Of a stretch of DNA of 64,000 bases, positions 54,734 to 61,990 are shown in pieces (position 1 is the stretch's first letter; every line of letters begins with the position of its first letter). A program made the translations under genes and the position numbers. A model generated the notes under the pieces. That model had not been told where the DNA came from. It was given only the letters and a program-made list of their open reading frames with translations, and did not search any database. The DNA lies in NCBI GenBank assembly GCA_000004695.1, contig CM000150.2, positions 1,152,001-1,216,000 of the forward strand. Reading direction: 5' to 3'. This stretch comes from Dictyostelium discoideum (Eukaryota).

Positions 54734-55241
54734 TTTTTATACCTCGTCTGGACAATTATTTTCAAAATTTTGTAGATCTAATATTGAATATACTTTTATA
54801 AAAAATAAATAAAAAATAAAAAAAAAGAAATTAAATAAAAAATTAAAAAATTATTAATATTTGGGGGTTGTTATAATTTTTATTTTTGTTATTATTATTT
54901 TTATTTTGGGGTTTTTTTTTTTTGGTATTGCTCAAAAACACCAAAAAACAATTTAAAAATTTACAGATCATTTTTAATTTATCAATTTTATTTTTATTTT
55001 ATTTATATTATTTTATTTATAAAATAAAAAAAAATGAAAATTTGATTTTTGATAGTGGTAAAATTTATTAAATTTTCATTTTTTTTATTTTTACTAAAAA
55101 AAAAAAGAAAAAAAAAAAAAAAATTGAAAAAAAAATTTTTAGGACGCATGTTGATCAATGGGTAAATATTAATTTCTAGTAATAGATTTTAATATATTAA
55201 TATTAAGTCAATAAACTAACAAACTCACTGAATACTTTTAA

Positions 55242-57051
55242 AAAGTTGAAAATAAATATATAGATAAAATTAAAACTTTAACATATAATAAAGAGTCACC
55301 AAAAACACTTTTAGAATTAATTACTGTTTTAAGGATTTATGATAAGTATAGAGATGATGAATCAATTAGAATTATAACTGCAGATTATTTCTGTCATTAC
55401 CACATTGATAAATATCTTCATTATGTAGATAAAAAAGGTCATACTGATTTCATTTTAAATTGTTTCTTTGATGATTCAAAAATTGTTTTTAAAAAATTAT
55501 GTGGTGGGTATTCCCCTCTTAATTCAAGTTATTGTAGATTTAAAATTTATAAGGGAATTGTTAATGATCAAAGGGTATGTCTTTATATTATATTTTTTGA
55601 TAAGGTTTATTAATATTAATACTACTTTATATTAATCAACCTTATCAAAAAATTAAAAATATATTTAGTTAAAAGAATCTTTTGAAAATAATTCGAGTGA
55701 ATTAAAAGAAAGGTTAGATCTTTTAAAAAAAAAATTTGTTTATGGTTGGTCAATCAAATCTCGAGCCGAATATGATTTCACTCGTTTACATAGTATCATT
55801 TATGATGGAATATCTGATGAAATTTTAAAATATCCAATTTCAGGAAAATATAATGATGGTTCATTTAATAAAAAGTATTATAATAATAGTAATAATAATA
55901 ATAATAATAATAATAATAATAATAATAATAATAATAATAATAATAATAATAATAATAATAATAATAATAATAATAATAATAATAATAATAATAATAATAA
56001 TAAAAATAATAATAATATTAATAATAATAATAATTATAAAAAATTCATTCTACCAGATATAATAATTGAAAAGATAATTAGAGATTCGTTATGGTATATT
56101 GATGATAGAATGGATAAAGTAATTATAAATGATAATTTATTATCATATGGATTAGTATGTAAACAATTCTTTAGAGTATTATCAAAAATATTAAATAATG
56201 AATATTTTGAATGGAAGAAATCAATTATACAATTTAATAACGATAGTGAATTCAGTTTAATTAAACAACCACCATTATATTTCGATTATCAATCAATCAG
56301 ATTAATACCATATTCAAGTAGTATTGAATATGTGAAATTATTATTCTCAAGAGTTCAATCGTTTTATATTAAAACTGATGAATATGATGCTATAAACTAT
56401 TATATGAAAAGAGAAAAAAAAAAAATTCCTGATAATGATGATAAAGAAAACGTTGTTTATTTAGAAGCAATTACATATCGAGATAATATTAAATCACCTA
56501 GATATTTAGTTTATCCACCACCAATGCCTTCATTAGAAAGTATCACTATTGATAAATATTATGGACTCGAATCAAATTATGCACATTTAATTAAACATAT
56601 TTTAATAAAATATTTCAAAGATTTTAAAACTTCAAAACTCCACATCAACGATAGATTTGGTATTAAAAGATTTTCAATCAATATCCAAGAATATCATAAA
56701 TATTTAAATGACAAATCAAATATTAAATTCATTAAGCAAGTATTAGAATATCATTCGAATTCATTAGAAATAGTTGAAATTGATTGTTCAAATACTCAAT
56801 ATATATATCCAAACCAACTAGAATATTTAAAATCATTAATCGATAATCAATCAAATAATAATATAAATTGGTCCCTATCAACTAAAAACATCACCAACAA
56901 CAACAATCTCCAAAATATACAGTATCTTGGTTTTAGTGAAAATGAGAATGAAAATGAAAATGAAAATGAAAATAAAAATGAAAATGAAAATGAAATTGAA
57001 AGTGACAATGAAAGTAATGGTGAAAGTGATAGCTATTCTTTCAACCTTTAA
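55242..57051 (+). CDS. F-box-like protein, tandem paralog A (5' start unresolved)
   Basis: Exon 55242..55574 (open frame after a TAA with no AUG; donor gtatgt) and exon 55669..57051 (acceptor atatttag), continuous through the N-tract to the stop. F-box-like segment LPDIIIEKIIRDSLWYIDDRMDKVIINDNLLSYGLVCKQFFRVL. C-terminal (EN)n acidic tail. Exon 1 is conserved in frame with copy B, including a 3-nt indel. Confidence 0.5.
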
Positions 57052-57439
57052 AAATTTAGAGAAATTAAAATAAAATTTAATTTATTTTTTTATCTTTATC
57101 TTTTTCTTTTTCTTTATCTTTTTTTTGGAACTACTTTGCAGAAGATACATCATTATTATTATTATTATTATTATTATTAAAAAAAATATCCAAACGAATC
57201 AAATGAACCAGATGAAGCAAACAGGCCAGATGAACCAGAAGAATTAGATGAGGCAGGGATATAGATAGTCTATTTATAAATATATCATCAATTAATTCAA
57301 TCAATAAATTTAATGTAGTTTTAAAATTAAAATCATTCACGGACTCTCGAAATTAAGTTTGTATAAAAAATAGTAATGATTTCAATTTCGAGATTTTTAT
57401 TATTGGATTTCATTTTATTTTACACTCTAATGCTGAAAC

Positions 57440-59808: not shown

Positions 59809-60384
59809 AAATTAAGAGAAATTAAAATAAAATTTTTTTTTTTTTATTTTTATAATATTGTTTGTTATTCCTTTAATTTAATAAATTATTATTATTTCAT
59901 TATTGTTTTTTTTTTTTTTTTTTTTTTTTTTTAAAATTTGCAATATCCTTTTTTGAGTCAACAAAAATTAAAAAAAAAAAATAGGCTCTATCAAGACCAA
60001 TTGAATTTTCTTTTTTTTTTTTTAAAAAATTTCAAATTTTAAATTTGGAAAAAATTATATTAAATTAACATTTTTGGAAATAAAATAAATAAAAAAAATA
60101 AAAAAAAGATGAAAAAATTTAAAATAACAAACCTATATTAAAAAAAAATAAATTAGGACCATTTAAAAAAAAAAAGATGATAAAATTTAAAAAAAAAAAA
60201 ATAAAAGATTTATAAATCTGTAGATTTAATGGAAATATGATTTATTTTAGTTTTTTTTTTTTCCTGGGTCAATCTTAAATTCCAAAGAAGTTTTTATATA
60301 GAAAATGTTGGAAAAAAAAAAAGAAAAAAAAAAAAAAAAAAAAAAAGAAAAAAAAATTTGGAAAAAAAAAAATTATTTTTATAG

Positions 60385-61990
60385 AATTCCCTAAAAATGT
60401 GTAAATATTAATTTCTAACAATAGATTTTAATTTTTTAATAAGCTAACAAACACACAAATTATTTTTTAAAAGTTGAAAATAAATATATAGATAAAATCA
60501 ATACTTTAGCATTTAAAGAATCTCCCAAAACACTTTTAGAACTAATTACTATTTTAAGGATTTATGATAAGTATAGAGATGATGAATCAATTAGAATTTT
60601 TACTGCAGAATATTTCACGCGTTACCACAGTGATAAATATCTTCATTATGTGGATAAAAAAGGTCACACTGATTTCATTTTAAATTGTTTCTTTGATGAT
60701 TCAAAAGAAGTTTTTACAGAAATGAGTGGATATAAACCTTAATTCAAGTTATTGTAGATTTAAAATTTATAAGGGAATTGTTAAAGATCAAAGGGTATGT
60801 CTTTACTTATTTATTATTAATATTAATACTACTTTATATTAATATTAATCAAACTTTTCAAAAAATTAAAAACCAATTTAGTTAAAAGAATATTTTGAAA
60901 ATAATTCGAGTGAATTAAAAAGATTCATTATGTTATATTGATGATAGAATGGATAAAGTAATTATAAATGATAATTTATTATCATATGGATTAGTATGTA
61001 AACAATTCTTTAAAGTATTATCAAAAATATTAAATAATGAATATTTTGAATGGAAGAAATCAATTATAATAATAATAATAATAATAATAATAATAATAAT
61101 AATAATAATAATAATAATAATAATAATAATAATAATAATGAAATCAATTATACAATTTAATAACGATAGTGAATTCAGTTTAATTAAACAACCACCATTA
61201 TATTTCGATTATCAATCAATCAGATTAATACCATATTCAAGTAGTATTGAATATGTGAAATTATTATTCTCAAGAGTTGAATCATTTTATATTAGAACTG
61301 ATGAATATGATTCTGGAAGCTATGACACGAAAAGAGAATATAAAATAATTCCTAATGAAGTACCTGGTTATACTAGTGATAATTATTATGAAGAACACAT
61401 GTATCTAGTAAGTATTAGATCACCTGGATATTTAGTTTATCCACCACCAATGCCTTCATTAGAAAGTATCCTATTGATAAATATTATGGACTCGAATCAA
61501 ATTAAGCCCATTTAATTAAACATATTTTTAATAAAATATTTCAAAGATTTTAAAACTTCAAAACTCAACATCAACGATAGATTTGGTATTAAAAGATTTC
61601 AATCAATATTCAAGAGTATCATAAATATTTAAATGATAAATCAAATATTAAATTCATTAAGCAAGTATTAGAATATCATTCAAATTCATTAGAAAAAGTT
61701 GAAATTGATTTTTCAAATACGAAATGTACATATCCAAATATGAAATATATATGTCCAAACCAATTAGAATCTTTAAAATCATTAATCAATAAGCAATCAA
61801 ATAATAAAATAAATTGGTCCTTGTCAATTAAAAATCAAAAACGACCAAAATATACAAAATATACAATATCTTGGTTTTAGTGAAAGTGAAAGTGAAAGTG
61901 AAAGTGAAAGTGAAAGTGAAAATGAAAGTGATAATGAAAGTGATAGTGAAAGTGATAGCTATTCCTTCAGCCTTTAAAAATTTAGAGAAA
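60385..61990 (+). pseudogene. F-box-like paralog C, degenerate
   Basis: Relative to copy B: a 2-nt deletion (ACCCCTCTTAATTC to AAACCTTAATTC) gives a stop after SGYKP; about 330 bp is lost inside exon 2 (60925-60935); an in-frame (ATA)n expansion lies at 61070-61140; a 1-nt deletion at about 61468 (ATCACTATTG to ATCCTATTG) shifts the frame. Confidence 0.6.

Follow-up and report, generated by a model that had tools for sequence, protein, structure and literature searches.

A young, lineage-specific tandem array of a putative F-box-like gene downstream of pyd1 in Dictyostelium discoideum

The tandemly arrayed F-box gene families of Arabidopsis and Caenorhabditis are fast-evolving and follow birth-and-death evolution, and an immune role has been proposed for the expanded F-box families of nematodes and plants. 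At the protein level, the FBXL receptors of SCF (Skp1–cullin–F-box) ubiquitin ligases, such as Skp2, FBXL2, FBXL3 and TIR1/COI1, carry a three-helix motif of ~45 residues (L-[PS]-x-[EI]-[IL]-[IL]-x-x-I-[IL] ... L-L-x-x-A-L-V-[SC]-K-x-F), with an alpha/beta solenoid directly behind it. Here, we describe a locus of Dictyostelium discoideum that resembles both systems. It lies within a stretch of 64,000 nucleotides (nt) of contig CM000150.2 (assembly GCA_000004695.1, positions 1,152,001 to 1,216,000; hereafter the window, with positions counted from its first letter), where three copies of one gene, A, B and C, follow each other just downstream of pyd1 (dihydropyrimidine dehydrogenase, DDB_G0267966; large exon 51133-53883). 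Elsewhere in the window, the open reading frame at 8464-9693 shows 100% identity over 410 residues to DDB_G0267940 of strain AX4, compared with 95-96% in two other assemblies, and the DNA is therefore matched to AX4 chromosome 1. We consider it probable that this is a lineage-specific tandem array of a dictyostelid-only gene family, that it has undergone birth-and-death evolution, and that its products would serve as SCF adaptors.

As in the plant and nematode families, there are tandem duplicates, frequent pseudogenes, lineage-specific copies, weak constraint and a local hypervariable stretch in the putative target-binding domain, and the features of birth-and-death evolution are found at the locus as head-to-tail paralogues with introns, a disabled copy, and a copy state that differs by lineage. 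In contrast to those families, the array is much smaller, with three copies, and the family comprises a few dozen representatives across Dictyostelia. The array proteins appear to share the motif and, in the predicted fold, the following solenoid with FBXL receptors, but add an N-terminal helical domain of ~160 residues, a poly-Asn linker and an acidic tail encoded by microsatellites.

Three head-to-tail units and their gene models

A repeat search and direct reading of the window, which has a base composition of ~20% G+C, runs of poly-Asn codons and intergenic poly(A)/poly(T) stretches, identified three direct, head-to-tail units of ~2.6 kb between a profilin-like gene and a CH-domain gene (Table 1). 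Copies of the landmark GTAAATATTAATTTCTA at 55162, 57770 and 60401 set the periods at 2608 and 2631 nt, and outside microsatellites the copies are 84-98% identical by segment over ~1.5-1.9 kb, far above chance. In a MAFFT alignment, the units of the window and those of a second D. discoideum assembly, three from each, align throughout except at the microsatellites. A previous sequence-only reading of this DNA had placed three tandem units of the same gene here, and both the periodicity and the identity agree with it. A transposable element was rejected as the source of the repeats, as the units are without a transposon-type domain, their homologues are cellular proteins and they sit in a conserved syntenic frame.

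In every unit, the gene consists of three exons, the first of which is only 4 nt long (ATGG or ATGT; in copy C, ATGT at 60397-60400). Intron 1 begins with GTAAAT and ends in AAAAAG at the acceptor, directly before TTGAAAAT at the start of exon 2. Although it lacks a Met codon, exon 2 aligns to the N-terminal domain of paralogues, and the frame can be opened only by way of the 4-nt exon. An upstream ATG (ATGTTGATCAATGG), considered as the start of copy A, is out of frame, and the 4-nt exon ATGG was taken instead. In the second assembly (GCA_054859385.1; L001), NCBI gene calls begin at 4816, 7500 and 10001, exactly the homologous ATGG/ATGT positions; its product P0001 starts MFENKYIDK, as predicted by the 4-nt-exon model; and the 4-nt exon and the splice sites are conserved in 6/6 copies (A, B and C of the window and A', B' and C' of L001). 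These gene models overturn the earlier proposal that a leader shared by the units represents a co-duplicated promoter: the stretch that opens with GTAAATATTAATTTCTA is intron 1 behind the 4-nt exon, and AAAAGTTGAAAATAAATATATAGATAAAAT runs across the acceptor of intron 1 into the beginning of exon 2. True upstream similarity is confined to ~85 A-rich nt common to B and C (57679-57765 versus 60312-60396, 85%), whereas the sequence upstream of A differs. With the genes spliced, a plain listing of unspliced open reading frames (ORFs) misleads at the array, and the 4-nt first exon is a practical warning to gene finders. Neither the spliced A and B proteins nor the exon-3 ORFs of these copies that begin with Met had a match in exact-sequence look-ups, and none was returned for the AX4 paralogue P0008. 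A word-indexed protein search also failed to retrieve the A' and B' products annotated in L001, and found nothing for the low-complexity CH-domain protein (8000 candidates, no match); negatives for simple-repeat-rich Dictyostelium proteins are therefore not to be trusted.

Copies A and B are both open, as the sequence-only reading had held, although they keep frame across several in-frame indels and not across a single 3-nt one. The same reading correctly recognised copy C as decaying and saw its (ATA)n insertion, which is 84 nt long (61053-61140) and in frame, but counted two frameshifts and a deletion of ~330 bp. Relative to B, we find five frame-breaking indels (-2 near 60735, a deletion of 257 nt at ~60921, -1 at 61468, +1 at 61522 and -1 at 61594), together with a nonsense change (TAT>TAA) near 61504. 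The 257-nt deletion takes out the poly-Asn linker and the first half of the F-box-like motif, and amounts to ~360 nt relative to A only because the (AAT)n tract of A is longer. With these lesions, copy C is dead, a pseudogene in this genome. Its origin as a retrocopy or processed pseudogene was rejected, as both introns are kept at the same positions as in A and B. A 21-nt tandem duplication at 61714-61759 (Tandem Repeats Finder period 21, 2.2 copies), which gives an extra 7 residues, is common to C and C' and absent from A and B, and is a clean marker of the C lineage.

Microsatellites within the coding sequence were located with Tandem Repeats Finder and by translation (Table 1). The poly-Asn tracts (AAT/CAA) and the (EN)n/(ES)n tracts are single-codon or hexamer arrays like other coding simple-sequence repeats of D. 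discoideum, and their lengths vary between very recent paralogues. C-terminal tracts of different length in each copy had been noted before, with all of them described as (GAAAAT)n encoding (EN)n; the lengths do differ, but the (AGTGAA)n of copy C would encode (ES)n. Coding repeats of D. discoideum are viewed as young and of fast turnover, which the tracts of the array fit (PMC3188802). The tracts are nothing unusual among such repeats, except that paralogues at a synonymous divergence (dS) of ~0.1 show their turnover directly within one genome.

A dictyostelid family with an F-box-like motif

An exhaustive profile search retrieved 46 representative relatives at E<=1e-3, and all sources that were looked up were Dictyostelia (Dictyostelium, Heterostelium, Tieghemostelium). 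Among them, DDB_G0268388 and DDB_G0268390 of AX4 and their relatives in D. firmibasis, D. citrinum, D. dimigraforme and Heterostelium album have the same domain order and an acidic D/E/S-rich C-terminus, and are 41-55% identical to A and B. They differ from the A/B/C clade in their longer N-terminus and in an ordinary first exon instead of the 4-nt one, and all are annotated as 'hypothetical'. The paralogue P0007 is a single copy at its locus. Orthologues of one paralogue are only 71% identical between D. discoideum and D. citrinum, and the family as a whole evolves fast. Two D. firmibasis gene models, P0002, which begins mid-copy, and P0003, which closes with another N-terminal domain, resemble fusions of adjacent copies, which suggests that tandem arrays and mis-annotation may occur in that species too.

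The core peptide on which the family had been called F-box-like is present as LPDIIIEKIIRDSLWYIDDRMDKVIINDNLLSYGLVCKQFFRVLS in A and LSDVIIEKVIRDSLCYIDDRMDKVIINDNLLSYGLVCKQFFKVLS in B, although the 'LPD' quoted for it is found only in A, with B reading LSD. Across the family, the motif takes the form L-[SP]-D-[IL]-[IVL]-[LI]-E-[KR]-I-I, a loop of 10-35 residues, and L-L-x-x-A-L-V-S-K-Q-F-F-K-V. Aligned by hhalign to 11 canonical F-boxes, the family motif scored Prob 83-85% with E 6e-6 to 9e-6, both halves being aligned in order. When the whole protein was scanned in 70-residue windows, scores were obtained only for windows covering the motif, at residues 198-250 (Prob 85%, E 6e-6); windows without overlap remained at <1%, two partly overlapping windows gave 22% and 38%, and the reversed control gave 0.1%. 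A Pfam match of copy A to yeast Virilizer (PF22575, E 3.5e-8) lies wholly within the poly-Asn tract and was rejected as a compositional artefact.

An AlphaFold model built on a 40-sequence alignment reached a predicted local distance difference test score (pLDDT) of 80 and a predicted template modelling score (pTM) of 0.82; a model from a 14-sequence alignment (pLDDT 47) was discarded. In the retained model, a helical domain (residues 1-160) is followed by the disordered poly-Asn linker, three helices belonging to the motif (203-215, 232-236 and 240-252), five to six strand-helix repeats at 279-487 and the disordered acidic tail. FBXL3, FBXL2 and COI1 are among the top structural matches of the predicted fold. 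From the profile comparison and the model, we conclude that the protein joins a divergent, putatively F-box-like motif to a putatively LRR-like domain. The family, seen here only in Dictyostelia, is missed by standard domain libraries; profile and fold evidence put it beside the F-box/LRR ligase adaptors, offering a testable functional hypothesis for several dozen 'hypothetical proteins'.

Age, gene conversion and constraint

The order pyd1, three copies, CH-domain gene recurs in GCA_054859385.1, which is labelled D. discoideum. There, C' (P0001, 531 amino acids (aa)) and B' (563 aa) are intact, and A' has a 1-nt deletion and an in-frame TAA, so that a different copy is broken in each lineage: C in the window genome and A' in L001. 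A' (L001 4816-6563) is annotated as a 480-aa protein despite its deletion, which falls in an A-run, and its TAA; either a gene model has been imposed on a pseudogene, or the two lesions stem from assembly errors at homopolymers. In D. citrinum (L002), pyd1 and the profilin gene are followed by the CH-domain gene ~150 bp further on, and tblastn with B returned no match to the array at that site; the gene list of D. purpureum at pyd1 has no synteny beyond pyd1 itself. Paralogue dS within the array is 0.07-0.16, whereas pyd1 has a dS of 0.086 between the window and the second D. discoideum lineage and of 0.34 between the window and D. citrinum. Taken together with synteny, these values place the duplications between the split from D. 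citrinum and the split of the two D. discoideum lineages, with the caveat that gene conversion lowers dS. The youth of the array, already proposed in the sequence-only reading, is borne out by the absence of the array from the D. citrinum site, its presence in two D. discoideum lineages and the low paralogue dS. L001 and the AX4-type window differ by ~2% in the pyd1 coding sequence, and one related assembly is labelled 'Dictyostelium cf. discoideum'. A pyd1 dS of 0.086 seems high for variation within this species, and L001 may represent a cryptic sister lineage.

The copies are mosaics. Among informative sites outside the repeat tail, 13 place {A, A', B'} on one side and {B, C, C'} on the other, and no more than 2 unite B with B'; shared derived sites number 27 for A+A' and 11 for C+C', as opposed to 2 for B+B'. 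Four sites separate the two genomes across all of their copies, and a cluster of A'+B' sites occurs at 59218-59284. The middle copy is thus C-like in the window genome and A-like in the other lineage, and this lineage-dependent affinity, with the other mosaic site patterns, argues for gene conversion, read here from site patterns and from identity by segment. Reshuffling of the middle copy by gene conversion appears evident from these patterns.

The ratio of non-synonymous to synonymous substitution (dN/dS), estimated by the Nei-Gojobori method with bootstrap intervals, is 0.58 for A versus B (0.40-0.98) and 0.44-0.91 over all pairs, compared with 0.03 for pyd1. By region, A versus B gives 0.57 in the N-terminal domain, 0.37 in the motif and first repeats, 0.25 in the C-terminal repeats and 1.58 in a segment of 38 codons, where the counts are too small for significance and positive selection is not statistically established. 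In this segment, which the model renders as a lower-confidence loop at residues ~313-340, paralogues are 66-82% identical, against 92-98% in flanking exon 3; C and C' differ by 24%, whereas A and A' differ by only 4.5%. The purifying selection suggested earlier for A and B, from the kept frame and conservative substitutions, appears real but weak, and constraint appears to be absent in the 38-codon loop.

Proposed role, alternatives and neighbouring features

The proteins would most likely be substrate-recognition subunits of SCF-type ubiquitin ligases, with the motif docking on Skp1 and the repeat domain and variable loop binding targets, a role that would resemble that of the fast-turnover F-box families of plants and nematodes. 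Several observations weigh against it, and would favour a real array whose proteins have nothing to do with F-boxes or SCF, the motif merely capping, as a helical N-terminal element, an alpha/beta repeat scaffold that is specific to dictyostelids and serves another role. Neither A, B nor the isolated motif matches the Pfam F-box models (PF00646 / PF12937) at E<=10, none of 40 family members does so at E<=0.01, and none of A, B and the 40 relatives reaches threshold for Pfam LRR; hidden Markov model searches of PDB sequences retrieve no F-box proteins. At the hallmark positions, the canonical Leu-Pro is Leu-Ser in B and most relatives (A keeps LP) and the canonical Trp is Phe (KQFF) in most members; unlike in FBXL receptors, the loop between helix 1 and helix 2 has an insertion of 10-35 residues. 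Skp1 docking is a prediction, and the 11 reference F-boxes of the hhalign comparison were sequences entered by hand. The rival nevertheless seems unlikely, if still worth keeping in mind, as it has to contend with a profile-profile match that has both halves in the right order, is confined to one segment and has clean internal and reversed controls. Two Heterostelium relatives have sub-threshold Pfam F-box matches at the same place (15.7 and 13.4 bits, cut-off 20.5), rule-based naming in UniRef designates four family members as 'F-box domain-containing', and a three-helix motif directly before an LRR-like domain is the FBXL arrangement. The term F-box-like, used in the sequence-only reading, therefore fits the motif-specific hhalign result and a predicted fold of an F-box followed by LRRs, but not a Pfam F-box match at threshold.

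A different challenge is that all three copies in the window genome are dead or dying, with A and B merely without disabling mutations so far. The upper bound of 0.98 on their dN/dS of 0.58 leaves open that A and B are only marginally constrained, confidence intervals of the pairs often include 1, coding microsatellites expand freely, a different copy is broken in each lineage, and no AX4 protein entry was retrieved for A or B; the last point is weak, as the same protein search missed known products. We judge this reading improbable: the frames of A and B (571 and 626 codons) are open across many indels, all multiples of 3, whereas C gained five frameshifts in a similar time; their dN/dS falls to 0.25-0.37 in the core and C-terminal domains; and the splice sites and 4-nt exon are kept in all six copies. 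The lineage difference in copy state is itself subject to the reservation that the lesions of A' could be assembly errors in homopolymer runs. That the triplication as a whole arose in assembly, with one gene wrongly rendered as three, is conceivable in a region rich in repeats with long microsatellites, but has next to no chance of being correct, as the copies differ by 2-16% and by many indels, each has distinct flanks, and three copies in the same arrangement, A and C being orthologous, are found in another strain that was assembled independently.

Returning to the tandem array of a putative F-box-like gene, we propose the following history. The 3' flank of copy A repeats that of copy C, including the end of the CH-domain gene, which indicates that the first duplicated segment ran from the gene into its neighbour, and 57052-57179 appears to mark the breakpoint of this duplication. 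An ancestral copy beside the CH-domain gene would have been duplicated with ~100 nt of the 3' end of that gene, giving rise to A, and a second duplication would have produced the middle copy. Replication slippage may then have resized the coding microsatellites independently in each copy, and redundancy may have let a different copy decay in each lineage. The locus offers a clean, datable example of D. discoideum gene gain and loss, in which segmental duplication with a breakpoint in a neighbouring gene, a second duplication, gene conversion, slippage of coding microsatellites and loss of a different copy per lineage can be followed as putative steps. It is ordinary though well resolved; no established view is challenged, and no new kind of system or mechanism is needed. 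By analogy with the F-box families above, the A/B/C clade might consist of fast-diversifying SCF receptors whose 38-codon loop is under diversifying selection and whose working copies vary by strain, with a role in self/non-self discrimination, social conflict or defence against bacteria or intracellular parasites; this extension is speculative, and we would give it little credence at present. Literature searches on neighbouring dictyBase gene identifiers and on Dictyostelium F-box tandem pseudogenes found nothing relevant.

Table 1. Features of the array and its surroundings in the window
Feature	Positions	Strand	Details
Copy A, intact, 571 aa	55158-57051	+	Exon 1 55158-55161 (ATGG), intron 1 55162-55245, exon 2 55246-55574, intron 2 55575-55668, exon 3 55669-57051 including stop; spliced translation open
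Copy B, intact, 626 aa	57766-59808	+	Exon 1 57766-57769 (ATGT), intron 1 57770-57852, exon 2 57853-58175, intron 2 58176-58254, exon 3 58255-59808 including stop
Copy C, pseudogene in window genome	60397-61977	+	Ancestral stop 61975-61977
F-box-like motif, copy A	56044-56210	+	FILPDIIIEKII ... LLSYGLVCKQFFRVLSKIL; hhalign and AlphaFold helices
Hypervariable segment, copy A, ~38 codons	~56389-56497	+	Approximate, from alignment; dN/dS 0.9-2.3
Hypervariable segment, copy B, 38 codons	58861-58975	+	Alignment, dN/dS
(AAT/ATA)53, copy A	55880-56039	+	Poly-Asn linker directly before F-box-like motif; 16 units in B
(TGAAAA)12.8, copy A	56937-57013	+	(EN)n acidic tail
B-specific expansions	59364-59786	+	(CAA)25 at 59364-59438, poly-Asn; ~290-nt (GAAAAT)n/(GAAAGT)n at 59476-59761, EN/ES acidic tail
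(AGTGAA)12.8, copy C	61879-61955		Would encode (ES)n, not (EN)n
3' flank of copy A	57052-57179	.	Repeats 3' flank of C (61978-62105, 90%) including last ~100 nt of CH-domain gene; blastn and repeat search
Partial fourth copy, ~225 nt	57446-57671	+	End of intron 1 and first ~190 nt of exon 2; ends in stop and poly(A)
Profilin-like gene, three exons	54193-54733	-	Pieces 54674-54733, 54440-54595, 54193-54351; left bound of array, divergent from copy A
CH-domain gene, 3' exon	62003-63385	-	ORF listing; convergent; right bound of array

Between A and B, the spacer holds a partial fourth copy just upstream of B, which is closest to the 5' end of B itself (93%). No counterpart of this fragment was found in the spacer of the other D. 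discoideum assembly, which points to a small duplication within the locus that is confined to the AX4 lineage. Behind copy A, a 69-codon minus-strand ORF at 57131-57340 is open in the duplicated 3' end of the CH-domain gene; the matching spacer in the second assembly (L001 6655-7149, minus strand) carries an annotated gene of 121 aa, probably a gene fragment that was wrongly called as a gene. The profilin-like gene sits in the very AT-rich spacer from pyd1 to copy A, and its D. citrinum orthologue (L002 13459-14015) is annotated with PF00235, while orthologues of the CH-domain gene are annotated with PF00307 in both L001 and L002.

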